A DNA stretch of 19,938 bases from IMG/VR virus record IMGVR_UViG_2711768019_000002, one strand, 5' to 3'. Positions 1 through 19,938 of the stretch are shown in pieces. The DNA is from a virus. Lineage: Duplodnaviria > Heunggongvirae > Uroviricota > Caudoviricetes. The translations under genes were made by a program, and so were the position numbers. Under the pieces are notes generated by a model. That model was not told where the DNA came from. It ran no database searches and worked only from the letters and a program-made list of their open reading frames with translations. Every line of letters starts with the position of its first letter. Position 1 is the stretch's first letter.

Positions 1-3000
1 ATACGCTATACCGTTAAAAATAATGGGCGGAATAATAATCTGGCGGTCAAAGTTATGATCATCGCTTATGGTGACTGTAACCGTCCCGTTTGGTGTTTCC
101 GTGTTACCCCACGTACCAGCCTGTTTCGGAAATGATTTGGATACAGCTTTAACGAAGTCACCTCTGACCTGAGTCGCCTCCAGCATGCCCTTAATCGTAC
201 AGTTTTCATTTACCGTGACATTGTTGAGCGTCCCGGCGTTCGCATTCACACTGCCACTGATATCCGCATTTTTAGCGGTCAGCTTTCCGTCCGGAGTCAG
301 GGAAAATGCCGATGGATTTCCACCGCTGGTAATGGTGGGGGCCGTCAGGCGTTTCAGGAACACGTCGTTCATGAATATCTGATCGCCCTGACCAACAAAC
401 ATCGGTTTTGTGTTGCCATTCGCAGGATTAACCATCGCAATCCTGTCCGCCGCCAGCAGCACCTGACTCTGCATGCCGTCAGGGGTGTTCTCAATACCGG
501 CACCAATACCCGCGATATAAAGGCGTCCGTCCTGCATCTGCTGCAGCTTCACAGCCCACATGCTGTTCAGGTTATTATTTGTATCAACCTGAACCTTCTG
601 TATCTGCTGAATTGCCGCACTCTGGTCTTCCAGTTTCTTATTGACGGTCTGCGTGATTTCATTGCTGACATCCGTAATGGACGTCCTGATTTCAGCCAGG
701 TCAGGCGCAAGCTGACCGTTATCAATCTGCGTCCACAGCTCCTGAGCCAGATGGGTTTTCCCTATCTCGCCTTTGAAAAAATCCAGATAACCGGATGCAT
801 CATCACTCGGCTGACCAACAGCCTCCACGAATGCCGATTTGCCAACGGTGTTCACACTGCGGATATAAAAGTAATAATCATGGCCCGGTTTGATATTGAT
901 ACTGGCGGCTATCCAGTACAGCGCCGTGCCAAGATAGCGTGCTGTGGTTTCAACCTGCCTGATATCCGCAATCCGCTTTTCCGAGAACCAGAACTCAAAC
1001 TGTACCGTCGGATCATAAACCGCAAGATGCGGCGTGGCGGTTATCTGAAAATAGCCCGGCGTCAGCTCAATCCGCGACAGCGCTGCCGGTGCGGCAATCC
1101 GGAACGATACCGACGCCGGATCGCCCTGCTGCCCCCACGCATTTACTGCCCGGACTGTCAGCCTGTAGTTCCCCAGCGCCAGTTGTGTGAAGCGGTAAGT
1201 GGTTTCCGTCGTCCGGGCCGTGCTGACCAGCCGCTCACTGCCGTCATCCGCTGTTACGGTCAGACGGAGCAGGAAGCTCACGCCCTTCACCACCTTCGGC
1301 GTGTCCCAGCGCGCCAGCACCTGATATTCCCCGCTGTCTGCGGTGACTTCGGCAGTCAGGTGCTGCACCGCTGGCGGCGTGACACCATTCACCGTGCCGC
1401 TCTGGTCGCCGTCAAAGTGCGCCCCGTTATCCACGATGGCTTCTTTTTCCGGCACATGCTGCACGGCGGTGATGGCATACGTGCCGTCGTCGTTCTCACG
1501 GATACTCACGCAGCGGAACAATCGCTGGTGCAGCGTCGGCAGCTTCAGCCCCCACACGCTGTATTCAGCAACACCGTCAGGAACACGGCTCACTTTTACC
1601 TTCACGCCGTCGGTGACGGACTGGACCTCCACGCTGACCGGATTCCCCTGCCCGTCAACCAGGCTTATCAGCGTGGTGCCGGAGGATGGCAGCGTGATTT
1701 CACGGTCGAGCGTCAGCGTCCGGGTCTGGCTGTTCACCGCCAGCACGCGCCCGCCGGTGCGGATACCGGCATAGTCATCATCGCAGATTTCAATGACATC
1801 GCCCGGTACATGACGAAGCCCTTCAGCACCCACGCTGAAATCCACGGTCTGCGTCTCCAGCAGTTCCGTTTTAATCAGCCACAGCCCGGCGCGGTGTGCC
1901 TGCCCCCGGCTGGTACAGCCAAAGGCATCCATCTTCGTGACGTTACGACCGTAACGGACAATGGCCTGCGTATCCTCCACAAGCTCTGTCGCCGTCTCCC
2001 AGCCGTTATCCGGGTCAATCCAGTTCACCTCAACGGCATTATGGCGGTCTTTCAGGGCGCTGAAACTGTAGCGGAACGGCGCGCCATCATCCGGCATCAC
2101 CACATTACTGCGGTTATAGGCCCACACCTTATCCGACTGTCGGTCCTGCACGAACGTCAGCGTCTGCCCGTTCCATACCGGCATACAGCGCATCGCCGAG
2201 CAGAAATCACTGAGCACATCCCACGCCTTGCGCTGTGTGGTCAGCCAGGCATTACAGGTGATGCGCGGCTCCGTGCTGCCAAAGCCGTCCGGCACCGACT
2301 GGTCACAGTACTGGCCGATGACATACAGCGCCCATTTATCCACATCTGCCGCACCAAGACGTTTCCCCATGCCATAGCGCGGATGGGTCAGCATATCCCA
2401 CAGACACCAGGCCATGTTGTTGCTGTATGCCGGTTTTAACGTTCCGTCCCAGATACCGCTGTATTGCCGCGTCTGCGGATTATAGTTCGACGGCACCTGC
2501 AGAATGCGCCCGCGAANNNNNNNNNNNNNNNNNNNNNNNNNNNNNNNNNNNNNNNNNNNNNNNNNNNNNNNNNNNNNNNNNNNNNNNNNNNNNNNNNNNN
2601 NNNNNNNNNNNNNNNNNNNNNNNNNNNNNNNNNNNNNNNNNNNNNNNNNNNNNNNNNNNNNNNNNNNNNNNNNNNNNNNNNNNNNNNNNNNNNNNNNNNN
2701 NNNNNNNNNNNNNNNNNNNNNNNNNNNNNNNNNNNNNNNNNNNNNNNNNNNNNNNNNNNNNNNNNNNNNNNNNNNNNNNNNNNNNNNNNNNNNNNNNNNN
2801 NNNNNNNNNNNNNNNNNNNNNNNNNNNNNNNNNNNNNNNNNNNNNNNACGCTGTATCTGAACCAGCAGGCGAACTTCAGACGGATTCCTGTCTCCCTTTG
2901 AGGTGGTTTCCACCAGTGCCTGTACACCGAAGGTAAAACGCAGTCGGTCAATGTTTGCCGACGTGATGGTCCGGGTGATCGGCGTGTCATATTTCACTTC

Positions 3001-3276
3001 CGTACCCAGCACCGTCTCGGAGCCGGAGGATTCAAATCCCTCCGGCGGTGACTGCTCCTGCTCACCTGCCCGGAACACCACCGTGACGCCGGAGATGTTG
3101 GTATTCCCCTCACTGTCCAGCACCGGCGTACTGTTCAGCAGCACGCTTTTTAATCCATCCACCGGACCTTCAACCGGCCCTTCGCTGATGGCATCGATCA
3201 CACTCAGCAGCTGCGTGGACTTCAGGTTGTCCTTCGCTTCGCGCGGGGTATGCCCCTTACTGCTGCCTTTACCCAT
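1..3276 (-). CDS. J: Tail tip/central tail fibre protein J (host specificity); partial, C-terminal ~40 codons lie beyond the window start; codons 144-254 masked by N-run
   Basis: Minus-strand ATG at 3274-3276 gives [13 protein letters not shown], matching lambda J N-terminus. Hand translation at 2461-2514 gives [18 protein letters not shown] and at 781-900 [29 protein letters not shown], both lambda J-like. Frame stays open to coordinate 1. Downstream of ~770 the sequence diverges from lambda. Confidence 0.9.
2517..2847. other. Run of 331 N (masked or unsequenced) inside gene J
   Basis: Literal n characters in the sequence. J codon phase (lowest codon coordinate 1 mod 3) is identical on both sides of the run. 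Confidence 0.99.
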
Positions 3277-3336
3277 TCGTCATGCTCCATAAACGATAAA
3301 ACCGCCCGGAGGCGATTTCACATAAAACATTTTGCA

Positions 3337-4008
3337 TCAGCGACCAATCACCACAACCTGACCACCGTCCCCTTCGTCTGCCGTGCTGATCTCCTGAGAT
3401 ACCACACGTGACCCCACGCGCATTTCACCATACAGAACAGGCATAACATTGCCCTGGGCAACCATGTTATCCAGTGAGGAGAAATAGGTGTTCTGCTTAC
3501 CGTTATCCGTTGTCTGTGTGCGGGGAGTTCTGGCTTTCGGTGCCAGCATCTGAGCCACACCGCCGAGCACCATACTGGCACCGAGAGAAAACAGAATGCC
3601 GGTCATACCACCGGCACCAATGGCAGCCCCCCATGCTGCAAGGGTGGCTCCGGCGGTAAAGAATGATCCGGCAATGGCGGCTGCTCCCAGGACAATCTGG
3701 AATACACCACCTGACTTGGCCCCGGCGACTCTGGGAACAATATGAATCACAGCGCCGTCAGGCAGAGCCTCATGTAACTGTGCCGTTAATCCGGACGTGC
3801 TAACATCCTGCCCGGCAATACGCACCTGATACCAGCCGTCGCTCAGCTTCTGACGAAACGCAGGGAGCTGTGTGGCCATCGCCCGGATGGCTTCGGCACC
3901 CGTTTTCACACGAAGGTCGATGCGGCGGCCAAATCGTTGCAAATCCCCGTAAAGGCAGATGCGTGCCATGCCCGGTGACGCCAGAGGGAGTGTGTGCGTC
4001 GCTGCCAT
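3337..4008 (-). CDS. I: Tail tip assembly protein I (N-terminal ubiquitin-like domain, then Gly-Gly and a hydrophobic Gly/Ala-rich segment)
   Basis: 223-aa ORF beginning MAATHTLPLASPGMARICLYGDLQRF, same length and sequence as lambda gpI. Overlaps K 3' end by 103 nt as in lambda. Confidence 0.9.
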   Translation of the reverse strand: MAATHTLPLASPGMARICLYGDLQRFGRRIDLRVKTGAEAIRAMATQLPAFRQKLSDGWYQVRIAGQDVSTSGLTAQLHEALPDGAVIHIVPRVAGAKSGGVFQIVLGAAAIAGSFFTAGATLAAWGAAIGAGGMTGILFSLGASMVLGGVAQMLAPKARTPRTQTTDNGKQNTYFSSLDNMVAQGNVMPVLYGEMRVGSRVVSQEISTADEGDGGQVVVIGR

Positions 4009-4649
4009 TTGTCGGTATACCTCTCTCGTTTGCTCAGTTGTTCAGGAATATGGTGCAGCAGCTCGCCGTCACCACAGTAAATGGCGGCATGATTCGGCAC
4101 CGATGAACCAAAACAGCACAGCAGCACATCGCCCGGCTGCGCCGCTGACAACGGCACCTGATACAGCCCTGTGGCCTCCAGATTATCCAGATAGAGATTC
4201 TGACCGTGACGCCACCAGTCATCCTCACGATGAAAATCCGGCATCTCAATCCCCGCCAGATGGTAAGCATCCCGGAACAGCGTGTAACAGTCCGTCACCC
4301 CGTGCTCAAAGCGCCGCCCGGTAAGATGTGGCACACAGCGGAACTTGTGAATCGCCCCCCGGCAGACCAGCCACCACGGCAAATCACTCTGCACCTGCAG
4401 CCGCCGGTCGGCCTCACTCAGCCAGGGCAGACCACCGGGGTGGCTGTGGACCAGTGCCACAATCTCACCCTGCATCTCTGCCTGCAGCCAGTCTTCCGGC
4501 GACATACGGAAATACGCCTCCGGCTCACCGGAGATATTCACGCAGGGGAAATATCTTTCCCCCTCCGGCGTTCTTACCACGAAGCCGCACGACTCCGCTG
4601 GAGCACATCGCCGGGCGTGCGCCAGAATCGCTGATTCTGTCTCTGTCAT
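3906..4649 (-). CDS. K: Tail tip assembly protein K (JAB/MPN metallopeptidase domain plus NlpC/P60 domain); longest in-frame ORF. The canonical lambda-type start would be the ATG at 4503-4505 (199 aa).
   Basis: 247-aa ORF. Residues 49-247 correspond to the 199-aa lambda K. JAMM motif HSHPGGLPWLSEAD (HxH-x7-S-x2-D) present, with an upstream PAESCG motif in the N-terminal extension. The ATG at 4505 has a GGAGG Shine-Dalgarno ~11 nt upstream; the ATG at 4649 sits 5 nt after the L stop with no clear SD. Confidence 0.85.
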   Translation of the reverse strand: MTETESAILAHARRCAPAESCGFVVRTPEGERYFPCVNISGEPEAYFRMSPEDWLQAEMQGEIVALVHSHPGGLPWLSEADRRLQVQSDLPWWLVCRGAIHKFRCVPHLTGRRFEHGVTDCYTLFRDAYHLAGIEMPDFHREDDWWRHGQNLYLDNLEATGLYQVPLSAAQPGDVLLCCFGSSVPNHAAIYCGDGELLHHIPEQLSKRERYTDKWQRRTHSLWRHRAWHASAFTGICNDLAAASTFV

Positions 4650-4654
4650 GGGAT

Positions 4655-5353
4655 TTACTGCGAAAGTTTGTTAATGGAAAGGAAGCCGCCAAAGTTGCCG
4701 ACGTTATTGCGAAACTTACAGCCACTCAGGCATTTGCTGCATTTATCCTTCGTGATGTCGGACGTTGGCTGGTCATATTCATCCGCGACCGCCGGACCGT
4801 GATAACCGCACTCATCGCCGCGATAGGTCCAGGTGCAGGTGTTGGCCAGCATGATACGTCCCGGAAAAACAGCGCCATCTGTTTCCGTCGGCGTGGACAG
4901 TACAAAAGAGGCACTCACCGCGCTCAGTTCGCTGCACTGCTCAATGCGCCAGCGGCTGATCACCTCCTGCTCCGGATCGGCGTCACTGTTTCCGTTGACG
5001 AAGTTCACCGCATCCAGAAAACGGGCGTAAACCTTACGCCGGACCACCGTTCCGCCGACCAGACTCTGTAGATCTTCCGCCATCCCGGTGACCATACCGT
5101 ACAGGTTAGAAACCATCAGCGTGGGGCGCGTACTGGTGCCTTTGCCATTCAGTTCAAAACCACTCCCCTGAATGGGATACGGCTGATACTGTCGCCCCTG
5201 CCAGGTGACCGGCTCACCTTTTTCGTTCTGCTCATTACAGAAAAAATAACGTTCTCCACCGACCTCTGTCAGATCGATTTCCCAGAGCACCACGCTGGCC
5301 GACTGCTCCGCACGGGTGCATTCATTCAGTGTTTCCTGCCGGATATCCTGCAT
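4655..5353 (-). CDS. L: Tail tip assembly protein L (C-terminal Cys cluster)
   Basis: 232-aa ORF, MQDIRQETLNECTRAEQSAS..., same length as lambda gpL. ATGA start/stop overlap with M. Cysteines in C-terminal ...RGDECGYHG...DKCSKCLSGCKF. Confidence 0.92.
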   Translation of the reverse strand: MQDIRQETLNECTRAEQSASVVLWEIDLTEVGGERYFFCNEQNEKGEPVTWQGRQYQPYPIQGSGFELNGKGTSTRPTLMVSNLYGMVTGMAEDLQSLVGGTVVRRKVYARFLDAVNFVNGNSDADPEQEVISRWRIEQCSELSAVSASFVLSTPTETDGAVFPGRIMLANTCTWTYRGDECGYHGPAVADEYDQPTSDITKDKCSKCLSGCKFRNNVGNFGGFLSINKLSQ

Positions 5354-5682
5354 CAGTTCACCACCTGTTCAAACTCTGCGCTGAACTCAACACGCAGCAT
5401 ACTGACCCGCGACGACCATTTTGCGCAGGTCACCTTTATCTGCCGCCACTCATAAGGCGGCGTCCACAGAAAGGCTTTCCAGCCCCCGTGCTCTTCCAGA
5501 AACGACTCCAGTACCATGGCCTCCTCACGGGGGACAGAAAGCGTCACGCTGTACGTTTTCAGGTTGGCATTCAGCCCGGCAGGCGCTCGCTGGGAATAGC
5601 CATCACCAAAGCGCACCTTTCTTACAGAAGGGGCCGAAGCCACATCCATACCGGGTTTCACTTTCCAGCGGAAGGTTTTCAT
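5353..5682 (-). CDS. M: Tail tip assembly protein M
   Basis: 109-aa ORF MKTFRWKVKPGMDVASAPSV..., lambda gpM length. 4-nt overlap with H. Confidence 0.9.
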   Translation of the reverse strand: MKTFRWKVKPGMDVASAPSVRKVRFGDGYSQRAPAGLNANLKTYSVTLSVPREEAMVLESFLEEHGGWKAFLWTPPYEWRQIKVTCAKWSSRVSMLRVEFSAEFEQVVN

Positions 5683-8240
5683 CGTCCACCTCCGGAGAAC
5701 AGGCCACCATCACGCATCTGTGTCTGAATTTCATCACGGGCACCCTTGCGGGCCATGTCATACACGGCCTTCATCATCTGTGGACCTGGCAGACCATTCG
5801 TACCGTCGTTCTGAATCACCACGTGATTGTTCTGATTAAAATTAATGCCTTCAGCCCGCCGCATCTGCGCCGGACTTCCGGCACCGCCCACATAACCACC
5901 TTCCGCATAGCCGCGCATCAGCCGGTAGAGATTCCCCACGCCAATCCGGCTGGTTGCCTCCTTCGTGAAGACAAATTCACCACGGTGAACAATCCCCGCT
6001 GGCTCATATTTGCCGCCGGTTCCCGTAAATCCCCCGGTTGCAAAATGGAATTTCACCGCAGCGGCCTGAATGGCTGTACCACCTGACGCGGATGCGCCGC
6101 CACCAACAGCCCCGCCAATGGCGCTGCCGATACTCCCGACAATCCCCACCATTGCCTGCTTAAGCAGAATTTCTGTCATCATGGACAGCACGGAGCGGGT
6201 GAAGCTGCGCCAGTTCTGTTCACTGCCGGTCAGCATCGCCGCCATATTCTGTGCAATACCATCAAAGGTCTGCGTGGCTGCACTTTTAACCTGTGACATA
6301 CTGTCCGTGGCGCTCTCTTCCCACTCACTCCAGCCGGACTTCAGGCCTGCCATCCAGCTCCCGCGAAGCTGGTCTTCAGCCGCCCAGGTCTTTTTCTGCT
6401 CTGACATGACGTTATTCAGCGCCAGAGGATTATCGCCATACTGTTCCTTCAGGCGCTGTTCCGTGGCTTCCCGCGCTGCCTGCCGGTCAGTCAGCCCCCG
6501 GTTTTTCGCATCAATGGCTGCCCGTTTTGCCCGTTGCTGCTGTGCGAATTTATCCGCCTGCTGCGCCAGCGCATTCAGGTGCTCCTGATACGTAACCTTG
6601 TCACCAAGTGCAGCCAGCTGGCGTTTGTACTCCAGCGTCTCGTCTTTATGCGCCAGCAGGGATTTCTCCTGTGCGGACAGCTGGCGACGTTGTGCCGCCT
6701 CCTCCAGTACCGCGAACTGACTTTCTGCCTTCCACAAATCCCGGCGCTGCTGGCTGATTTTCTCATTCGCTCCGGCATGCTTCTCCAGCGTCCGGAGTTC
6801 TGCCTGAAGCGTCAGCAGGGCCGCATGAGCACTGTCTTCCTGACGATCGCCCGCATACACCTTCACGCCGGACTGTTTCGGCTTTTTCAGCGTCGCTTCA
6901 TAATCCTTTTTCGCCGCCGCCATCAGCGTGTTGTAATCTGCCTGCAGGATTTTTCCGTCTTTCAGTGCCTTGTTCAGTTCTTCCTGACGGGCGGTATATT
7001 TCTCCAGCGGCGTCTGCAGCCGTTCGTAAGCCTTCTGCGCCTCTTCGGTATATTTCAGCCGTGACGCTTCGGTATCGCTCTGCTGCTGCGCATTTTTGTC
7101 CTGTTGACGCTGTTGATCTACCCTCTTTTGGGCTGCATCCCGCTCCAGGCGTTTTTTTTCACGATCATCCCAGTAACGCGCCCGTGCTTCATCGTTAACG
7201 AAATAATCATCCTTGCGCAGATTCCAGATGTCGTCTGCTTTCTTAAACGCAGCCTCTGCCTTAATCAGCATCTCCTGCGCGGTATCAGGACGACCAATAT
7301 CCAGCACCGCATCCCACATGGATTTGAATGCACGTGCAGTCCTGTCTGCCCAGGTCTCCAGCGTGCCCATGTTCTCTTTCAGGCGGCGGGTCTGGTCATC
7401 AAACCCTTTCGTTGCGGCCTCGTTCGCCGCCTGCAATGCCCCGGCTTCATCGCCGGAACGCTGCAACTGAGCAACATACGCAATCTGCTCCGCCGTCACG
7501 TTATGGAACTGGCGTGCCATCGCCGTCAGCCCCGACGTCGGGTCTGTGGTCAGCTTCCCGAAGGCTTCAGCGACCTTGTCCACCTCCACGCCGGATGCAT
7601 AGGAGAAACGCGCCACACTCTGGCTGATGGACGCAATCTGAGCCTCACCGCTTACCCCCGCCTTAACCAGTGCGCTGAGTGACTCGCTGGTCTGGTTAAA
7701 CGTCAGCCCTGCCGCCTGCCCGGCTCTGGACAGGACCAGCATACGATCTGCCGTCAGTCCCGCCTGATTACCGGAAAGGACCAGCGTTTTGTTGAAATCG
7801 GACAGGGTTGAGTTGCCCTGATACCAGGCATACGCCAGCGCACCGGTCGCCACCGCCAGCGAGGTGGCCCCCACCATCGGCAGGGTGATCGCGCCGGCAA
7901 GCCCCCTGAACATGGGGATCATCCCGCCGAAGGAGTCCTTAACCTGACCACCCTGTTGCAGCAGGATCAGCCAGGGATTCTGCCCCCCTGCAAGCTGCGT
8001 GGCCACGTCGGTGAACTGTGCAGGCAGCATACGCATGGCGGCTTTATACTGCCCGACGGAAATCCCCGCTTTCTGTGCAGCCAGCGCCTGTCGGCTCAGC
8101 GACTGTTCAACGACTGCCGCTGTTTTTTTCGCATCACTTTCCGTACCGGAAAAATGACGCCTGACTCTGGCCATCTGCTCGTCAAATCTGGCCGCATCCA
8201 GACTCAAATCAACGACCAGATCGCCTACCGGTTCAGCCAT
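5679..8240 (-). CDS. H: Tail tape measure protein H
   Basis: 853-aa ORF MAEPVGDLVVDLSLDAARFDEQ..., same length as lambda gpH. Long Ala/Gln/Glu-rich coiled-coil central region, Gly-rich C-terminal part. Confidence 0.95.
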   Translation of the reverse strand: MAEPVGDLVVDLSLDAARFDEQMARVRRHFSGTESDAKKTAAVVEQSLSRQALAAQKAGISVGQYKAAMRMLPAQFTDVATQLAGGQNPWLILLQQGGQVKDSFGGMIPMFRGLAGAITLPMVGATSLAVATGALAYAWYQGNSTLSDFNKTLVLSGNQAGLTADRMLVLSRAGQAAGLTFNQTSESLSALVKAGVSGEAQIASISQSVARFSYASGVEVDKVAEAFGKLTTDPTSGLTAMARQFHNVTAEQIAYVAQLQRSGDEAGALQAANEAATKGFDDQTRRLKENMGTLETWADRTARAFKSMWDAVLDIGRPDTAQEMLIKAEAAFKKADDIWNLRKDDYFVNDEARARYWDDREKKRLERDAAQKRVDQQRQQDKNAQQQSDTEASRLKYTEEAQKAYERLQTPLEKYTARQEELNKALKDGKILQADYNTLMAAAKKDYEATLKKPKQSGVKVYAGDRQEDSAHAALLTLQAELRTLEKHAGANEKISQQRRDLWKAESQFAVLEEAAQRRQLSAQEKSLLAHKDETLEYKRQLAALGDKVTYQEHLNALAQQADKFAQQQRAKRAAIDAKNRGLTDRQAAREATEQRLKEQYGDNPLALNNVMSEQKKTWAAEDQLRGSWMAGLKSGWSEWEESATDSMSQVKSAATQTFDGIAQNMAAMLTGSEQNWRSFTRSVLSMMTEILLKQAMVGIVGSIGSAIGGAVGGGASASGGTAIQAAAVKFHFATGGFTGTGGKYEPAGIVHRGEFVFTKEATSRIGVGNLYRLMRGYAEGGYVGGAGSPAQMRRAEGINFNQNNHVVIQNDGTNGLPGPQMMKAVYDMARKGARDEIQTQMRDGGLFSGGGR

Positions 8241-9071
8241 ACCGGACTCCTCCTGCGATCCCTTCTGATACTGTCATCAGCATTACGTCATCCTCCGTCA
8301 TGTCCGCCACATCCGGGGAAGCGGGGATAACTTCATTCCCGTCCGGGCCAAAGCGGACACCTCCGGCAAGCCCTGCCGCTTTCTGCATCAGCACATCATC
8401 TTCAGGCTCTTCGTCAGCCTCGCGCCGGTTCAGCAGACTGAAATCCAGCGGATGCATCTCCGGATCGCTGAAAAACAGGCTGAGCACGGTGTACGTCAGC
8501 CCGGAAAAGTGCATATCCAGCAGAACATCATGAAAATAATGGGTACTGTAAAAGCGGTGCCAGTCGGCATACTCCGTGGATGACATCCCGGCAAGCATGG
8601 CGCGCCAGTCGGGTCGCCCCATCTCACGCGCCAGTTTCAGGGCAAAACTCAGCTCACCGTCGAACACTTTCCCGCAGAAACAGGCTCTGCAGGCCCGGCG
8701 TCCTCTGCCTGTTCAGGAGCATCATTCACCACAAACTCATACATACCGGACAGCCGGTACACCACGTTTTCAGCATGAGAAATTGCCTCTGTGGGCCAGG
8801 TGGTAAGCACTTCCTGCTCAATCTGTTTAACGGCTTCATTCATGGACGGCATCTGCGTCTTCTTCGGATGGTTATGCCACAGGGACATCGCAACCACAAA
8901 AGCGCCGGTTCTGATGGCGTCTTCCACAGTAAACTTCCGGTTGCTGTCTGACTCCGCCTGTTCTGCCTGCCGTTTCATCAGGTCGAGATGCTCAATACGC
9001 TGCAGGGCTGACAGTTCAGAAAGCGTGACGGTCACACCGTTATGTTCAAATGATTCGGTTTTCAGGAACAT
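8233..9071 (-). CDS. GT: Tail assembly chaperone G-T fusion, made by programmed -1 ribosomal frameshift from G into the T frame
   Basis: G frame (8649-9071) and T frame (8233-8667) overlap at the slippery heptamer GGGAAAG. T frame has no ATG of its own (begins at GTG inside the slip site) and ends 8 nt inside H. Confidence 0.85.
8649..9071 (-). CDS. G: Tail assembly chaperone G
   Basis: 140-aa ORF MFLKTESFEHNGVTVTLSELSALQRIEHLDL..., lambda gpG length. Ends ...AGKCSTVS then TGA. Confidence 0.92.
   Translation of the reverse strand: MFLKTESFEHNGVTVTLSELSALQRIEHLDLMKRQAEQAESDSNRKFTVEDAIRTGAFVVAMSLWHNHPKKTQMPSMNEAVKQIEQEVLTTWPTEAISHAENVVYRLSGMYEFVVNDAPEQAEDAGPAEPVSAGKCSTVS
8667..8673 (-). other. 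-1 programmed frameshift slippery heptamer G GGA AAG for G-T
   Basis: Plus strand reads ctttccc at 8667-8673, which is GGGAAAG on the minus strand. In the G frame it reads G-GGA-AAG, three codons before the run into the G stop. Confidence 0.85.
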
Positions 9072-9086
9072 CGCTGACTCTCCGGA

Positions 9087-9827
9087 TTAACTGGCGGTGA
9101 CGTTGATTTCTGCAACCGCAGCAAACTCACCATTACCAGATACGACCGGAATGTTGACCTTGCCTGCAGCAACACCTTTCACGGTGATGGTCATACCACT
9201 GACCGACACGGTGGCTTTTGTTTTATCCGCAGACACCGCACGGAAGCTCTTGTCGGTTGCGCCATCCGGCTGGAATGCCACGGTCAGCGTGGTGCTCTGC
9301 CCTTTCACTACGGAAGCACTGGCGGGTGTCACCGTCATGCCGGTCGTCGCCGTCACCGTGCTGCGATCTTCTGCCATCGACGGACGTCCCACATTGGTGA
9401 CCTTCACCGTGCGGGTAATCACCTCCTTCGCCGTCACCGCCTTACCGATACTGCTGACCCAGCCACGGAACACATCGACCGTGCCGTTCGGGAAGCGGAT
9501 TTTATAGGCACGGGTATCACCTTCATTAAACCACGCCAGCAGCGCCTGCTGCCCCTGCTCTCCGGGCATCCACGCCAGCGTGAAGCTGGTATCTCCGGCA
9601 GATTTCTGCCCCTGCCCGGTCGCAGTCCAGTCTGCATCTTCATCATCGAGATAGCTGTCGTCATAGGACTCAGCGGTCAGTTCGCCGGGCGTCAGGTCTT
9701 TAACTTTTGCCAGACGCGACCAGTCAACGTCTGAAAGCGGGTTCGCATAAGGGTCACCGCTCCCCTTATAAACCCACAGGGTGGTCCCGGCACCTTTCAC
9801 CGGCATTGTAGGATTTGGTACAGGCAT
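9087..9827 (-). CDS. V: Major tail tube protein V (C-terminal Ig-like domain)
   Basis: ORF track gives 256 aa from an upstream ATG. The lambda-type start [27 protein letters not shown] is 10 codons in, giving 246 aa as in lambda gpV. Confidence 0.93.
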
Positions 9828-9834
9828 AGCGTCC

Positions 9835-10230
9835 TCACATTTCATAGATAATGACATAAGTCAGATCGGCTGAACTCCACAGGCCCGCATCATCGTCGCG
9901 CCGGTAGTCATAGCCGCTGGCCACCATACTGGTGATCAAATCTGACAGTGCCGGGATATCGCTCATCACAGGATAAATCCGGGACTCCATCCACGAATCC
10001 AGCTCTGAATCCGGCACCTGAGCAGGCAGGAAAACTTCAATATGCAGCTCCGCCTGCCAGGTATCGCTGTCCAGCTCTTCGCCCGTGTATTCAGCGCCGG
10101 TGAGATAAACGGCAATTGCCGGAAAATCTTCCTCATCAAAAACAGCGGGGCGACCATCAAAAAGCGTCGCCCCGGTGTCATGCTTCTCCAGTGCATCCAG
10201 TACGGCTGCACGGAGTTCAGTATGTTTCAT
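9835..10230 (-). CDS. U: Tail terminator protein U
   Basis: 131-aa [36 protein letters not shown]..., lambda gpU length. 4-nt overlap with Z. Confidence 0.92.
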
Positions 10231-10805
10231 CGCTTTATTACCATTCTCAGTTGATGCTGCAGCGCATAGCCCAGCTCTTTCGGAAGACGTTCACGCCGTA
10301 TCCGTTCAATATTCTGTTTAAACGCCGTGGTCAGCGGCACCGCCATCGGGATTTTCACCACATCAATGGGGTAACGGTTTTTCCCGGCCACACGCTGCAT
10401 AACATGCCACCGGCCGTTTTTCAGTTGCTGAATAAACGCGCCGGGAATACGACGGTTACCCACCACAAGCACGCTGCCGCCACCTTTCAGGGATGAACGC
10501 TGCCCCTTTTTATGACGCCTGCGGCGGGACAGGACAACCCGCGCATTACCCAGCTTGATTACGGGCAAATCCCCCCGGTTAACTTTGATTCTGGCCTGCG
10601 GATTTTTGACCGTGGCCCTTTTCAGCCTGGCCCTTTCCTTTACCAGTTTCCGGCGTACCTTTGTCTCACGGGCAACCTGTGACGCAGACTGCGATATCGC
10701 GGATGAAGCAACGCGGTTAATGGCCATTGCGGCGGCACCGGGCACCGCCGTTTTGCTGATACGGCTGAGGTTTTCAACGGCCTGCTCAAGACCTTTTATG
10801 GCCAT
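10227..10805 (-). CDS. Z: Tail completion protein Z
   Basis: 192-aa ORF MAIKGLEQAVENLSRISKTAVPGAAAMAINRV..., lambda gpZ length. Confidence 0.92.
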   Translation of the reverse strand: MAIKGLEQAVENLSRISKTAVPGAAAMAINRVASSAISQSASQVARETKVRRKLVKERARLKRATVKNPQARIKVNRGDLPVIKLGNARVVLSRRRRHKKGQRSSLKGGGSVLVVGNRRIPGAFIQQLKNGRWHVMQRVAGKNRYPIDVVKIPMAVPLTTAFKQNIERIRRERLPKELGYALQHQLRMVIKR

Positions 10806-10816
10806 ACATCCCCCTT

Positions 10817-11170
10817 TCAGCGGCGACGGTTAACGGCAGGCGGTACGCCCCGTCCAAGCCAGAGATGACAACTTCCGCCATCATCCGGCGAAACCCGATC
10901 TACCCAGAAATTTTCCTCACCGATGGTCAGCGTGTCTCCACGCCGCAGCTGCCGCACCTCATCAGTCCGGACAAACAGGGACGGGCTGGAGCCTTCAACG
11001 CGCACGCCCTGTCCGGCATAGCTGATATTTTCAGGGTCATCAAAAACACCACGTATCACCGCACCTGACTGCTCACCGGATGTCATGGTGGCTGACGTTC
11101 CCATGTACCCGCGTATCGTTTCATCGGCGCGGGCAATGGCAGCATCGAACAGGTTATCGAAATCAGCCAC
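10817..11170 (-). CDS. FII: Head-tail joining protein FII
   Basis: 117-aa ORF MADFDNLFDAAIARADETIRGYMG..., lambda gpFII length. Confidence 0.92.
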   Translation of the reverse strand: MADFDNLFDAAIARADETIRGYMGTSATMTSGEQSGAVIRGVFDDPENISYAGQGVRVEGSSPSLFVRTDEVRQLRRGDTLTIGEENFWVDRVSPDDGGSCHLWLGRGVPPAVNRRR

Positions 11171-11181
11171 AGCGCCTCCCG

Positions 11182-11580
11182 TTATTGCATTCTGGCCAGG
11201 CCGCGCTCTGTCATTTCGGCTGCCACACCGGCAGAGACACGAAACGCCGTTCCCGGCAGCACAAATGCCACAGGTTTATCCCGCGTGGCGTGAAGTGCAT
11301 CAGTATGCAGCGTCACCAGTGCCACGACCGTGACCAGTTCAGCCGTATCCTGAATCACGGTATCCGGCTGCGCTGATACCACCTCATTTTCATGCCCGGT
11401 CAGCACATTTTCCCGGCTGAGAGGGGTGTCCTGACCGGCAGTTTCATCCGTGTCATCAAGCTCTTCTTCCAGCTCTGCCACACGAAGCGCCAGTTCTTCT
11501 TTCGTTCCCGTCAAACTGACATCGCGGTTCAATTGCTCACCCAGCTCCTGAAGACGGGCAATCAGTTCATCTTTCGTCAT
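11182..11580 (-). CDS. FI: DNA packaging accessory protein FI
   Basis: ORF track gives 145 aa. The lambda-type start MTKDELIARLQELGEQLNRDVSL is at 11580 (132 aa), with GGAGGAG 4 nt upstream. Confidence 0.9.
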   Translation of the reverse strand: MTKDELIARLQELGEQLNRDVSLTGTKEELALRVAELEEELDDTDETAGQDTPLSRENVLTGHENEVVSAQPDTVIQDTAELVTVVALVTLHTDALHATRDKPVAFVLPGTAFRVSAGVAAEMTERGLARMQ

Positions 11581-11601
11581 GAACTCCTCCACAGAGAGAA
11601 A

Positions 11602-11619
11602 ATGGCCCCGAAGGGCCAT
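11602..11619 (-). other. Stable hairpin with UUCG tetraloop immediately 3' of the E stop codon (possible mRNA stabiliser or processing site)
   Basis: Transcript reads AUGGCCC-UUCG-GGGCCAU, a perfect 7-bp stem. It lies between the E stop (11622-11624) and the FI Shine-Dalgarno. No U-tract follows. Confidence 0.4.
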
Positions 11620-11621
11620 GA

Positions 11622-12647
11622 TTACGCCAGTTGAACGGACACGAACTCATCAGGATCAGCCAGCAGCATCAGCGGTGCTGACTGAATCATGGTGAACTCA
11701 CGCGCCGGATCGCCGGTGGTCACCCAGTTTTTCGGGTAACGGGCAGAAGCGTTAATGCCTTCGCGCTGTGCGTCCGCATCCTGAATGCAGCCATAGGTGC
11801 GCAGACCGCGAGCCTGAGTGTTCCCCAGCACCATCGTGTTGTCCGGCAGGAAGTTCTTTTTGACGCCGTTTTCCACGTACTGTCCGGAATACACGACGAT
11901 GGCCACATCGCCATACATTCCCTTATAGGACACCGCTTTGCCCAGGTCTTTTACCGCTGTCTCCAGCTCGGAATGAGAGCCGCGACGGGTATCCAGCTTC
12001 TCCTTGACGGCTTTGAAGGAACGGAACAGCGCCCAGCCTTTCGGGTCAAACACGATGATATTCACCACACCGCTGGCGTTCAGCGCGTAGGCTTCGATAT
12101 CGTCGGTCGGGTCATACGTGGACTTGTCACGCTTGCTCCACTCCGTGACGCCGGACTGTGTGATGTTGTTCGCCGCACTGCGGCCCATATCCACCTCAAC
12201 CGGATCGAAGGCTTCACCGGTCATGGTGTATTTGCCCTTGAGCACGGCAGAAACTGCCTGCATCTCTTCGACCTGAGCAATGGCCAGCTCTTCGTCACGC
12301 ATGTTCTGCATGATGATGCGACGGCGGCGGTAAGCCGGGTCCGCCAGATTCTGCGGATCTTCATCCGGCAGGCGACGCAGGGTCATCTGCGGATTCACCT
12401 CATGCTTGGGTTTGACATATCCCGGCGTAAATTCAGAGGTGGAGCCGCCACGGGAACGGATAACCTCACCGGAAACAATCGGCGAAACGTACAGCGCCAT
12501 GTTTACCAGTCCCGGAATTTGTGAGAGATAGACTTTCTCCGTAGTGAAGGGATAGCTCTCACGGAAAAAGAGACGCAGAAACAGCGGATCAAACTTAAAT
12601 TTCTGCTCATTTGCCGCCAGCAGCTGGGCGGTTGTGTACATCGACAT
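11622..12647 (-). CDS. E: Major capsid protein E (HK97-fold)
   Basis: ORF track gives 350 aa. The lambda-type start MSMYTTAQLLAANEQKFKFDPLFLRLFF is at 12647, giving 341 aa as in lambda gpE. Confidence 0.95.
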   Translation of the reverse strand: MSMYTTAQLLAANEQKFKFDPLFLRLFFRESYPFTTEKVYLSQIPGLVNMALYVSPIVSGEVIRSRGGSTSEFTPGYVKPKHEVNPQMTLRRLPDEDPQNLADPAYRRRRIIMQNMRDEELAIAQVEEMQAVSAVLKGKYTMTGEAFDPVEVDMGRSAANNITQSGVTEWSKRDKSTYDPTDDIEAYALNASGVVNIIVFDPKGWALFRSFKAVKEKLDTRRGSHSELETAVKDLGKAVSYKGMYGDVAIVVYSGQYVENGVKKNFLPDNTMVLGNTQARGLRTYGCIQDADAQREGINASARYPKNWVTTGDPAREFTMIQSAPLMLLADPDEFVSVQLA

Positions 12648-12660
12648 AAAAAAATCCCGT

Positions 12661-12685
12661 AAAAAAAGCCACACAGGCGGCCTTT
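12661..12685 (-). terminator. Intrinsic-terminator-like hairpin plus U-tract in the D-E spacer (likely partial attenuator)
   Basis: Transcript reads AAAGGCCGCCUGUGUGGCUUUUUUU. GC-rich stem (one G-U pair), then a 7-U run, 20 nt downstream of the D stop and ahead of the E start. Confidence 0.35.
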
Positions 12686-12702
12686 AGTGATGAAGGGTAA
12701 AG

Positions 12703-13035
12703 TTAAACGATGCTGATTGCCGTTCCGGCAAACACGGTCCGTTTTTTCGTCTCGTCGCTGGCAGCCTCCGGCCAGAGCACATCCTCATAACGGAACGTGC
12801 CGGACTTGTAGAACGTCAGTGTGGTGCTGGTCTGGTCAGCAGCAACCGCAAGAATGCCAACGGCAGCACCGTCGGTGGTGCCATCCCACGCAACCAGCTT
12901 ACGGGTGGAGGTGTCCAGCATCAGCGGGGTCATTGCAGGCGCTTTCGCACTCAATCCGCCGGGCGCGGTTGCGGTATGAGCCGGGTCACTATTGCCCAGC
13001 GGCTGGTAATGGGTAAAGGTTTCTTTGCTCGTCAT
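12703..13035 (-). CDS. D: Capsid decoration protein D
   Basis: Start [12 protein letters not shown]... at the third Met of the listed ORF gives 110 aa as in lambda gpD. AAGGGA Shine-Dalgarno upstream. Confidence 0.95.
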
Positions 13036-13044
13036 AAACATCCC

Positions 13045-13650
13045 TTACACTGGTGTGTTCAGCAAATCGTTAACGGCATCAGATGCCGGGTTACCTGCAG
13101 CCAGCGGTGCCGGTGCCCCCTGCATCAGACGATCCAGCGCAGTGTCACTGCGCGTCTGTGCACTCTGTGGTGCTGCGGCCAGAATACGGCGGGCCGTTTC
13201 CACGGTCATACCGGGGGTTTCGGCCAGCACGCGTGCCTGTTCTTCGCGTCCGTGAGCCTCCTCACAGTTGAGGATCCCCATAATGCGACTGTTTTCTGCC
13301 GCAACCGCTGCGGTGATCTGCGCGTTCACGTCCGGCTGCGCCGCGCTGGCGTTCTCGCCCTCCGTCGCTTGCACCACGCCAGTAACGTCAGCCTGCGAAG
13401 CAGTGGCTGAAACAGTTGTTGATTGAGTCTCTTTGGTCATTCGCCCTCCTGAGAGACGGGATTTACGTGCATCCAGTGCATCACGCATGACGGTGATCGC
13501 ATCGGTACTGTTAACAAGTTCATCAGCCAGTCCGGCATCAATGGCCTCCTGACCGCTGTACACTGCAGCCTCGGTATCCAGCACAGCCTGCACGGACAGG
13601 CCGGTATATGCCGACACCTTCTGTGCAAACATCCGGCGGGTTGCATCCAT
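13045..13650 (-). CDS. Nu3: Capsid scaffolding protein Nu3, nested in-frame in the 3' part of C
   Basis: Internal in-frame ATG (C residue M239, MDATRRMFAQKVSAYTGL...) gives 201 aa, the lambda Nu3 arrangement. Assigned by colinearity only. Confidence 0.65.
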   Translation of the reverse strand: MDATRRMFAQKVSAYTGLSVQAVLDTEAAVYSGQEAIDAGLADELVNSTDAITVMRDALDARKSRLSGGRMTKETQSTTVSATASQADVTGVVQATEGENASAAQPDVNAQITAAVAAENSRIMGILNCEEAHGREEQARVLAETPGMTVETARRILAAAPQSAQTRSDTALDRLMQGAPAPLAAGNPASDAVNDLLNTPV

Positions 13651-14344
13651 CCGGGACTGCAATGTTTCCCGGACATCATCCGGTAGATGGCTGTAGGGGT
13701 TGCCATCCACCTTATGGCTGCCGCTGTAAATCAGCGTGATTTCCACGCCCTGTTTCTCCAGTGCAGCGCCGTAATTACTGTGAGCCATCATGACGCCGAT
13801 GGAGCCTGTCCGGGCGGTCTGCGTGACCAGACGCCGGGAGGCGGCACTGGCAAGCAGCTGACCTGCGCTGCAGTTCATGTCATTGGCCAGCGCCCATACC
13901 GGCTTTATGTCACGCACACGGGCGATGATGTCAGCGCAGTCAAATGCTCCCGCCACCATTCCGCCCGGTGTGTCCATATCGAGCAGAATGCCGTCCACCA
14001 TCGGGTCGCTGGCAGCCTGTTGCAGACGGGCGATAATGCCGTTGTAACCGGTCATCCCCGAGTACGGCTGCAGCGCCCGCGTCCGGCTGACCAGCGTGCC
14101 GGACACCGGCAGCACGGCGATGCCGTTCATTACCTGATAACTGCGGGCCTGTCGTGGTCCGTCATCATCACCGGATAACGCCAGCGCCGCGGGTGCCTCT
14201 CCGGCAGTCAGGCTGTCGCCGGATACTGCATCCGTCAGGCAGCTGATCCCAAGCTGGCCTGCAAGCGCACAAAAGAAAACCCGCGCATAGGCGGGTTCAA
14301 GCATCAGCGGCTCATTAAAAGCCATGCTGGCAATATGCGGGAGA

Positions 14345-14364
<20 letters not shown>
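13045..14364 (-). CDS. C: Head maturation protease / scaffold C (peptidase S49 family), GTG start
   Basis: GTG at 14362-14364 begins VTAELRNLPHIASMAFNEPLMLEPAYARVFF..., 439 aa as in lambda gpC. Start lies inside the 3' end of B. Confidence 0.9.
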
Positions 14365-18045
<3,681 letters not shown>

Positions 18046-18071
<26 letters not shown>

Positions 18072-18591
18072 TCAGCAACCCCGGTATCAGTTCATCCAGC
18101 GCGGCTGCTTTGTTCATGGCTTTGATGATATCCCGTTTCAGGAAATCAACATGTCGGTTTTCCAGTTCCGGAAAACGCCGCTGCACCGACAGGGGGATCC
18201 CGTCGAGAATACTGGCAATTTCACCTGCGATCCGCGACAGCACGAAAGTACAGAATGCGGTTTCCACCACTTCAGCGGAGTCTCTGGCATTTTTCAGCTC
18301 CTGTGCGTCGGCCTGCGCACGCGTAAGTCGATGGCGTTCGTACTCAATAGTCCCTGGCTGGAGATCTGTCTCGCTGGCCTGCCGCAGTTCTTCAACTTCC
18401 CGGCGCAGCTTTTCGTTCTCAATTTCAGCATCCCTTTCGGCATACCATCTTATAACGGCGGCAGAGTCATAAAGCACCTCATTACCCTTGCCACCGCCTC
18501 GCAGAACGGGCATTCCCTGTTCCTGCCAGTTCTGAATGGTACGGATACTCGCACCGAAAATGTCAGCCAGCTGCTTTTTGTTGACTTCCAT
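18046..18591 (-). CDS. Nu1: Terminase small subunit Nu1
   Basis: 181-aa ORF MEVNKKQLADIFGASIRTIQNWQEQGMPVLRGGGKGNEVLYD..., lambda gpNu1 length, with N-terminal HTH region. Confidence 0.97.
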
Positions 18592-18599
18592 TGTTCATT

Positions 18600-18830
18600 C
18601 CACGGACAAAAACAGAGAAAGGAAACGACAGAGGCCAAAAAGCCCGTTTTCAGCACCTGTCGTTTCCTTTCTTTTCAGGGGGTGTTTTAAATAAAAACAT
18701 TAGGTTACGGCGAAGAAGAACGGAAACGCCTTAAACCGGAAAATTGTCATAAATAGCGAAAACCCGCGCGCCTTCCGCCCCGTAACCTGTCGGATCGCCG
18801 GAAAGGACCCGCAAAATGATAATAATTATC
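18600..18830 (-). other. cos packaging site: cosB (Nu1-binding repeats R1 ~18612-18633, R2 ~18653-18678, R3 ~18711-18730, with an AT-rich IHF-type segment between R2 and R3), cosN core 18769-18780, cosQ-side flank to ~18830
   Basis: Inverted and direct copies of the GAAAGGAAACGACAG-type element. The flanks GCGAAAACCCGCG and CGTAACCTGTCGGATCGCCGGAAA match the lambda cos junction from memory. The 12-nt core here is CGCCTTCCGCCC on the plus strand. Confidence 0.8.
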
Positions 18831-18979
18831 ATCTACATGTCACAACGTGCATCTACGCCATCAAACCACGTCAAATAATCAATTATGACGCAGGTATCGT
18901 ATTAATTGATCTGCATCAACTTAACGTAAAAACAACTTCAGACAATACAAATCAGCGACACTGAATACAGGGCAACCTC

Positions 18980-19213
18980 ATGTCAACGAAGAACAGAACC
19001 CGCAGAACAACAACCCGCAACATCCGCTTTCCTAACCAAATGATTGAACAAATTAACATCGCTCTTGTTCAAAAAGGGTCCGGGAATTTCTCAGCCTGGG
19101 TCATTGAAGCCTGCCGCCGGAGACTGTGCTCAGAAAAAAGAGTTTCGCCTGAAGCAAACAAAGAAAAGAGTGACATTACTGAATTGCTCAGAAAACAGGT
19201 TAGACCAGATTGA
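18980..19213 (+). CDS. Small basic DNA-binding-like protein, probable ribbon-helix-helix fold; resembles YnfO/YlcI-family (DUF3950) proteins of E. coli lambdoid prophages
   Basis: 77-aa ORF MSTKNRTRRTTTRNIRFPNQMIEQINIALVQKGSGNFSAWVIEACRRRL... Basic N-terminus, then a predicted beta-strand and two helices. Family assignment is from memory, not a search. Confidence 0.55.
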   Translation: MSTKNRTRRTTTRNIRFPNQMIEQINIALVQKGSGNFSAWVIEACRRRLCSEKRVSPEANKEKSDITELLRKQVRPD

Positions 19214-19270
19214 AGCAATTTAGATAATCGTGCAGACTACGCCCCCTCATATCACATGGAAGGTACTACA

Positions 19271-19681
19271 ATGGCTCAGGTTGCCATTTTTAAACAAATA
19301 TTCGATAAAGTGCGAAATAATTTAAACTATCACTGGTTTTATTCTGAACTAAAACGTCACAATGTCTCACATTACATTTACTATTTAGCCACAGAGAATA
19401 TTCATCTTGTTCTTGAAAACGATAATACGGTTTTAATAAAAGGACAGGGTAAGGTTGTAAATGTAAGATTTTCAAAAAATAAATGCCTTATAGAAGCCAC
19501 CTTAAAAGGATTCAAATCAGGAGAGTTATCATTTTACGAATACAGGAAAAATCTTGCTACAGCAGGGGTTTTCAGATGGATTACAAATATCCACGAAAAC
19601 AAAAGGTATTACTATACCTTTGATAATTCATTACTCTTTACTGAGAACATACAGAACACTACACAAATATTTCCGCACTAA
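19271..19681 (+). CDS. Hypothetical protein resembling the YdfO/YbcV family (DUF1398) found next to cos in E. coli lambdoid prophages
   Basis: ORF 19256-19681. The ATG at 19271 ([45 protein letters not shown]...) has GGAAGG ~9 nt upstream. Family assignment is from memory. Confidence 0.55.
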
Positions 19682-19726
19682 ATCATAACGTCCGGTTTCT
19701 TCCGTGCCAGAACCGGACTCGCTGGC

Positions 19727-19936
19727 ATGATGAAATATGTGTACCCGGTAACCCCGGTGTGCATCGTTTTTGATTATTCCCGCACACTCGCGCAGAAGGA
19801 GTTCCCCGTCGGGCTACGGTCTCTGTTAATACGGGAATACGGCGACGATTGGATTTGCCCCTATATTTCCAGACATCTGTTATCACTTAACCCATTACAA
19901 GCCCGCTGCCGCAGATATTCCCGTGGCGAGCGATAA
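19727..19936 (+). CDS. Unassigned small ORF (69 aa); doubtful
   Basis: MMKYVYPVTPVCIVFDYSRTLAQKEFPVGLRSLLIREYGDDWICPYISRHLL... No recognisable motif and no clear SD. Overlaps an Arg-rich minus-strand ORF. Confidence 0.2.
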   Translation: MMKYVYPVTPVCIVFDYSRTLAQKEFPVGLRSLLIREYGDDWICPYISRHLLSLNPLQARCRRYSRGER

Positions 19937-19938
19937 CC

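Follow-up and report, generated by a model that had tools for sequence, protein, structure and literature searches.

Phage lambda uses LamB as its receptor, and the last 249 residues of its J protein, the tip attachment protein of the central tail fiber, bind LamB (PMC3509688). J binding is needed for the irreversible adsorption of lambda whether or not side fibers are present (PMC11101478, PMC11338833). Phage 434 uses OmpC, as does lambda carrying 434 J (PMC3509688, PMC11101478, PMC12502783); among the papers cited here for 434, its use of OmpC has been attributed to J on genetic grounds and with an AlphaFold3 model. The native receptor of phage 21 (Phi21) is LamB, and one mutation in its receptor-binding protein gives access to OmpC (PMC11336670). 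Four mutations give lambda access to OmpF, and lambda J residues 1012 and 1107 are both critical for this gain and hot spots of natural variation (PMC6646904). Among gpJ variants that bind OmpC, some discriminate between OmpC alleles, and chimera 1A2 recognizes some OmpC variants only (PMC11338833). Published work covers how the J specificity region varies in nature, how it recombines, and how it can be engineered (PMC6646904, PMC11338833).

Gene J and its genomic context

We analyzed a 19,938-nucleotide stretch of DNA from an IMG/VR virus record (hereafter the window). A complete late operon of the lambda type lies on its minus strand and runs from Nu1 (18591..18046) to J (3276..1). Positions 2848-18768 are colinear with lambda 13-15933 at 97.1% identity (BLASTN against NC_001416), positions 732-2514 match lambda at 94.7%, and positions 175-562 yield a weaker match of 78.9%. 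The reading frames from Nu1 to I all have lambda length, or are longer only through counting from the first possible start. J follows H, M, L, K, and I and precedes lom, stf, and tfa, the latter genes being seen in the Shigella sonnei locus described below. Positions 18769-19938 gave no match to lambda 1-23000, the part of lambda compared. On the plus strand this region encodes a DUF3950 protein (77 residues, 18980-19213) and a DUF1398 protein (141 residues, 19256-19681), which may resemble genes of the ylcI/ybcV type present in the cryptic prophages DLP12 and Qin. Among complete Escherichia coli genomes, the best match to the window reaches only 97.8%, and an exact 60-mer had no match in a collection of genome contigs.

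J begins with a start codon at 3276-3274 on the minus strand and runs off the window edge at coordinate 1, where its 3' end is truncated. Its reading frame region is further broken by an in-frame run of 331 N (2517-2847), which covers the FNIII-A_GpJ region and corresponds to lambda J nucleotides 430-712. This stretch measures 283 nucleotides in lambda, in phage phi458, and in the S. sonnei locus, and the best complete E. coli matches are also 48 nucleotides shorter across the N-run. We rejected a real 48-nucleotide insertion because the identical locus has 283 nucleotides there, and the N-run thus overstates the true length by 48 nucleotides. Five of the six domains of lambda gpJ were found in lambda order in the fragment after the N-run (Phage-tail_3, Ig_J, Ig_J_second, Phage_Tail_Tip, and Ig_GpJ_C); the sixth, FNIII-A_GpJ, is masked by the N-run but can be seen in the S. 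sonnei locus. In lambda J, Ig_J spans residues 610-714, Ig_J_second 716-818, Phage_Tail_Tip 845-972, and Ig_GpJ_C 1001-1132, the last being the C-terminal receptor-binding domain. The Ig_GpJ_C match in the window comprises J residues 1045-1090 (coordinates 1-144, model positions 1-47 of 135), and 48 of the ∼137 codons of the receptor-binding domain (144 nucleotides, about one third) lie inside the window.

Using the I protein encoded in the window, we located the S. sonnei locus (L007) in the chromosome CP023645.1, which belongs to S. sonnei CFSAN030807 (PMC11594029). The locus is 100% identical to the window over positions 1-2516 and shows a single mismatch over positions 2848-14008. Its J is an intact frame of 1165 residues, which places 89 codons and the stop codon past coordinate 1 of the window. 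The receptor-binding domain extends past the window edge for about two thirds of its length, and for that part this near-identical genome is the only source. Past J, the S. sonnei locus contains a lom gene truncated to 160 residues (14301-14783, Pfam Ail_Lom 1-159 of 199), which is without a gene call in the source annotation. Next come an intact stf of 1029 residues, a tfa of 193 residues, and IS1 insA/insB-like ORFs (19351-20048).

On the plus strand, an ATG-initiated ORF of 562 residues (751-2439) lies antisense to J. Comparable open frames occur opposite J in lambda (705 codons), 434 (585 codons), and the S. sonnei locus (767 codons), yet the frame is broken in phi330 (224 codons). We rejected this ORF as a gene, and its frame appears to shadow that of a codon-biased gene.

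Allele switches along the C-terminal quarter of J

In BLASTP comparisons, near-identity to lambda J (NP_040600) ends at the motif KSAFVEAVG, whose last residue is window residue 821 (814-816). It is followed by clear divergence and by 30 surplus residues in the window J. With E-values of 0, chance is no issue for these alignments. Nucleotide identity to lambda, calculated in sliding segments of 60 nucleotides, is 88-100% from 2516 to ∼815, 0-82% over 409-813, 84-98% over 229-408, and 38-78% over 1-228.

We next list protein identities segment by segment, in the numbering of the 1165-residue J from the S. sonnei locus (window residues are +16 after the N-run) and with names for the fiber and shaft parts taken from PMC11101478; all segments are on the minus strand. 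The N-terminal three quarters of J (residues 1-805, window 814-3276), which comprise the hub domains and two FNIII/Ig domains, are lambda-like, with 97% identity to lambda, 98% to 434, 97% to 21, 98% to phi458, and 66% to phi330. The next block (residues 806-935, window 424-813) starts at the end of FNIII-2, lies between Ig_J_second and the first part of Phage_Tail_Tip, and encodes the α-helical shaft and the upper straight fiber in a long variant, 30 codons longer than in lambda. It shares 38% identity with lambda and with 434, 97% with 21, 100% with phi458, and 62% with phi330. The lower straight fiber (residues 936-1000, window 229-423) forms a conserved island, with 91% protein identity to lambda, 86% to 434, 88% to 21, 98% to phi458, and 77% to phi330, and crossovers between alleles fall within it.

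Beyond the island, the junction between fiber and receptor-binding domain (residues 1001-1028, window 145-228) is the first 434-type stretch, in which 26 of 28 residues are those of 434 (93%, compared with 61% for lambda, 61% for 21, 100% for phi458, and 68% for phi330). The first 48 codons of the receptor-binding Ig-like domain (residues 1029-1076, window 1-144), identified by the Pfam Ig_GpJ_C match, are likewise of 434 type (44 of 48 residues, 92%), with 44% identity to lambda and to 21, 100% to phi458, and 48% to phi330. In the part of J seen in the S. sonnei locus (residues 1077-1165), 85 of the last 89 residues agree with 434 (96%), and the corresponding values are 28% for lambda, 35% for 21, 94% for phi458, and 36% for phi330.

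At the nucleotide level, phage 434 tracks lambda down to ∼229 and the window from 228 onward (84-100%), and phage 21 tracks the window from 813 to ∼364 (91-100%), then begins to depart, and has stopped tracking it at ∼318. These switching patterns indicate independent assortment of the shaft and tip cassettes, the crossovers falling in the conserved lower fiber. As judged from the alignments, the divergence from lambda is made up of two separate cassettes, shaft and tip, not one.

This picture refines the sequence-only reading, which had described near-identity to lambda up to ∼770 followed by a diverged C terminus. The peptides it quoted are all present in the minus-strand translation, and the transition is real, with the break located at ∼814 and not at ∼770. 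The C-terminal region is diverged overall (it does not exceed 90% identity to lambda J, the level at which that reading would have abandoned its claim) but not uniformly so, the conserved island at 229-423 having been overlooked. A recombinational mosaic relative to lambda, also proposed there, agrees with the way segment identities switch between lambda, 21, and 434. The abrupt boundary had been taken for the edge of a host-range cassette; it is the edge of the separate shaft cassette (424-813). By alignment, the sequence does not change over to the host-range allele until ∼228, either within the conserved island or past it. The missing end of J had been put at ∼40 codons and is more than twice as long (89 codons and the stop). 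Sequence past coordinate 1, where lom, stf, and tfa genes had been sought, could be recovered from the near-identical S. sonnei locus only, in which a truncated lom is followed by stf and tfa. By segment identities, the shaft is that of phages 21 and phi458 (97-100%), and the tip is of the phage 434 type.

The tip allele, its relatives, and its prevalence

The closest full-length J proteins are those of phages phi458 (OP434518) and ev099 (LR597635), with 97.5% nucleotide identity over window positions 1-1500. Like the S. sonnei locus, both combine the long shaft with a 434-type tip, as does the window. Over the 838 residues that follow the N-run, phi458 and the window J differ at 15, of which 14 fall in the lambda-like part, and across window residues 822-1092 they differ at a single amino acid.

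Phage 434 J (UMO75362.1, OL657227), the classical h434 determinant with OmpC as receptor, has the same receptor-binding end and the same indels as the window but the short α-helical shaft of lambda, which is 38% identical to the window's at 424-813. From the junction to the C terminus, protein identity to 434 is at least 90% in every segment, both in the window and in the S. sonnei locus. Three indels relative to lambda are of 434 type, namely +2 at lambda 1011/1012, +6 near 1051, and -4 near 1103. Only the first is inside the window, and the other two are seen in phi458 and in the S. sonnei locus. The first indel makes the loop at 82-132, which by alignment is equivalent to lambda J 1005-1019 and contains the host-range hot spot Ser-1012, two residues longer than in lambda. 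From the motif NCTIKG onward, the window tip differs from 434 by four substitutions in 68 visible residues. Of the four differences seen in the visible part of the domain, three (Q/K, A/V, and N/D) map to the Ser-1012-equivalent loop. The S. sonnei locus shows further changes relative to 434 in the Asp-1107-equivalent loop, and differences among members of the 434-type family also gather in these two loops.

Lambda J (structures 8IYK, 8XCJ, and 8XCK) binds LamB and corresponds to the window J in gene, position, and domain order. Its shaft lacks 30 residues relative to the window's and shares 38% identity with it, and its receptor-binding domain shares only 28-44% identity with the window and S. 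sonnei sequences, with indels at LamB-contact and host-range loops. Compared with the lambda LamB-binding domain (lambda J 981-1132), the tip is 44% identical in the window and 28% identical beyond it, and phi458 is 37% identical to lambda over the whole receptor-binding domain. Phage 21 J (UMO75436.1) contains the long shaft cassette, 97% identical to that of the window, and a third tip allele that is 35-44% identical to the window and S. sonnei tip; its native receptor is LamB (PMC11336670).

The J protein of phi330 and the engineered gpJ chimera A8 (PDB IDs 9wca and 9wcb) share the domain order of the window J, carry a long variant of the shaft, and bind OmpC (PMC12502783, PMC11338833). The phi330 tip is 36-48% identical to that of the window and S. 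sonnei and is not of the same type. We considered phi330, which depends on OmpC experimentally and is the closest genome to WGPS6, as a proxy for the receptor and set it aside, its tip being a different allele (43-48% identity); WGPS6 carries the window's tip allele. Neither chimera represents the window allele, as the printed end of 1A2 is visibly another sequence and A8 equals the phi330 type. Six 18-mers common to the window, 434, and phi458 were absent from the chimera supplement of Brodel et al. Over the aligned stretch, the C-terminal domain of "A8 gpJ 713" in 9wca/9wcb reads the same as J of the Stx2a phage phi330 (17482-20610), and the engineered A8 tip and the natural EHEC phage tip appear to be the same allele. 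J tips that use OmpC thus come in at least three separate alleles (434-type, A8/phi330-type, and 1A2), and since the latter two are not that of the window, they lend no direct support to a receptor prediction for the window. Searching PDB sequences, we found no solved structure of a 434-type tip, the nearest being the A8 chimera and lambda. Matches to Pfam and to PDB sequences are enough to establish the fold.

The 434-type tip is common. With window positions 1-215 as query, it was found in 2105 of 5426 complete E. coli genomes (about 39%), the window's shaft cassette in 3610, and the short shaft of lambda in 3168 (2627 with at least 80% query coverage). The lambda tip (query L001 18440-18903) occurs in 98 of the 5426 genomes, always with at least 99% identity; the five genomes among the matches listed are all laboratory strains, three of them DE3 lysogens. 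A tblastn search with the phi458 tip returned 74 phage records with at least 90% identity, the next matches falling below 48%. Phage records with a 434-type tip include cdtI, mEp460, 2851, WGPS6, and many Stx1a and Stx2c phages, and an exact 60-mer of the window tip is present in 78 IMG/VR contigs.

Receptor prediction and implications

Natural J proteins allow shaft and tip to be compared separately: the short shaft with the lambda tip goes with LamB, the long shaft with the 21 tip goes with LamB, and the short shaft with the 434 tip goes with OmpC. As 21 uses LamB with a long shaft and 434 uses OmpC with a short one, the receptor goes with the tip cassette, independent of the shaft. The window tip is the 434 allele and 434 uses OmpC, which makes OmpC the best receptor prediction. 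The sequences directly show the mosaic structure, the identities of the alleles, the positions of the domains, and how common they are. OmpC, rather than LamB, is by inference most likely the receptor of the window phage, as would be any effect of the longer shaft. We thus consider it probable that J is a lambda-like protein with a C-terminal quarter rebuilt from two circulating cassettes and with a 434-type tip that most likely docks on OmpC.

In the history that we favor, J belongs to a lambda-like prophage, its late operon ∼97% identical to lambda, and homologous recombination has recast the C-terminal quarter of this J from cassettes that circulate independently. One cassette is the long α-helical shaft (424-813), common to phage 21 and most E. 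coli prophages, and the other the 434-type receptor-binding end (1-228 plus the 89 codons past the window). The conserved straight-fiber stretch (229-423) joins the two and supplies homology for the crossovers. The trimeric tip would then most likely bind the trimeric porin OmpC as in 434, and binding would trigger fiber rearrangement and tail opening, as described for lambda.

The sequence-only reading had proposed a receptor other than that of lambda or a different LamB allele, starting from the role of the last ∼250 residues of lambda J in LamB recognition, which agrees with the 249 residues reported (PMC3509688). Its main proposal is strengthened by the identity of the tip with the 434 allele (92-93% in the window and 96% beyond, as opposed to 28-44% with lambda), and its alternative finds no support. 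That LamB is still used, perhaps as another allele, with the divergence reflecting neutral drift or adaptation to LamB polymorphism, is highly improbable in our estimation. The tip of phage 21 is far from that of lambda and still uses LamB (PMC11336670), so that being distant from lambda in sequence is not in itself enough to exclude this receptor. However, the window tip is not merely non-lambda but the particular allele found in 434, a phage that uses OmpC (PMC3509688), and identity to the tip of 21, a user of LamB, is only 44% and 35% in its two parts. We give equally little credence to the view that the J allele is functionally irrelevant, the prophage being defective or its side tail fibers dominating host recognition. 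The truncated lom (160 residues) and the IS1 just past tfa in the S. sonnei locus would fit a defective prophage, and the intact stf (1029 residues) and tfa (193 residues) would allow side fibers to dominate. Yet J is intact in this locus, the Nu1-to-I frames have lambda length (or more by start counting) in DNA 97% identical to lambda, and irreversible adsorption of lambda requires J with or without side fibers (PMC11101478, PMC11338833).

More weight, although it is still rather unlikely, belongs to a 434-like tip with a specificity shifted by loop substitutions toward OmpF, toward Shigella- or strain-specific OmpC only, or toward dual receptor use. The counterpoint to a simple OmpC assignment is that, in our alignments, identity to 434 is 92-96% and not 100%, the differences being located in loops on which the specificity of lambda depends. 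They cluster in the Ser-1012- and Asp-1107-equivalent loops, Phi21 and lambda can gain a receptor through as few as one to four substitutions (PMC11336670, PMC6646904), and the restriction of gpJ chimera 1A2 to some OmpC variants (PMC11338833) illustrates how narrow recognition can become. On the other hand, 92-96% identity and an indel structure shared with 434 speak against such a shift, and laboratory receptor expansions usually add a receptor and do not replace the native one. It is quite unlikely, in our view, that the loop substitutions could retune the tip to Shigella- or strain-specific OmpC or to a second porin and that the long shaft, in combination with a 434 tip, might alter signaling to tail opening.

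With OmpC as the predicted receptor, the J protein in the window represents ordinary lambdoid mosaicism with a long-known 434-type host-range allele. As such it is already known, and essentially the same J protein is present in GenBank phages and in a S. sonnei genome. Its value is largely one of annotation: the tip allele provides a prediction of OmpC use for a prophage family that occurs in S. sonnei as well as in ∼39% of complete E. coli genomes. The LamB-binding tip of laboratory lambda, by comparison, is rare among sequenced genomes. Lambda, 21, 434, and the window prophage make up a natural two-by-two of shaft and tip, which could be used to study the effect of shaft length on the triggering of DNA ejection.
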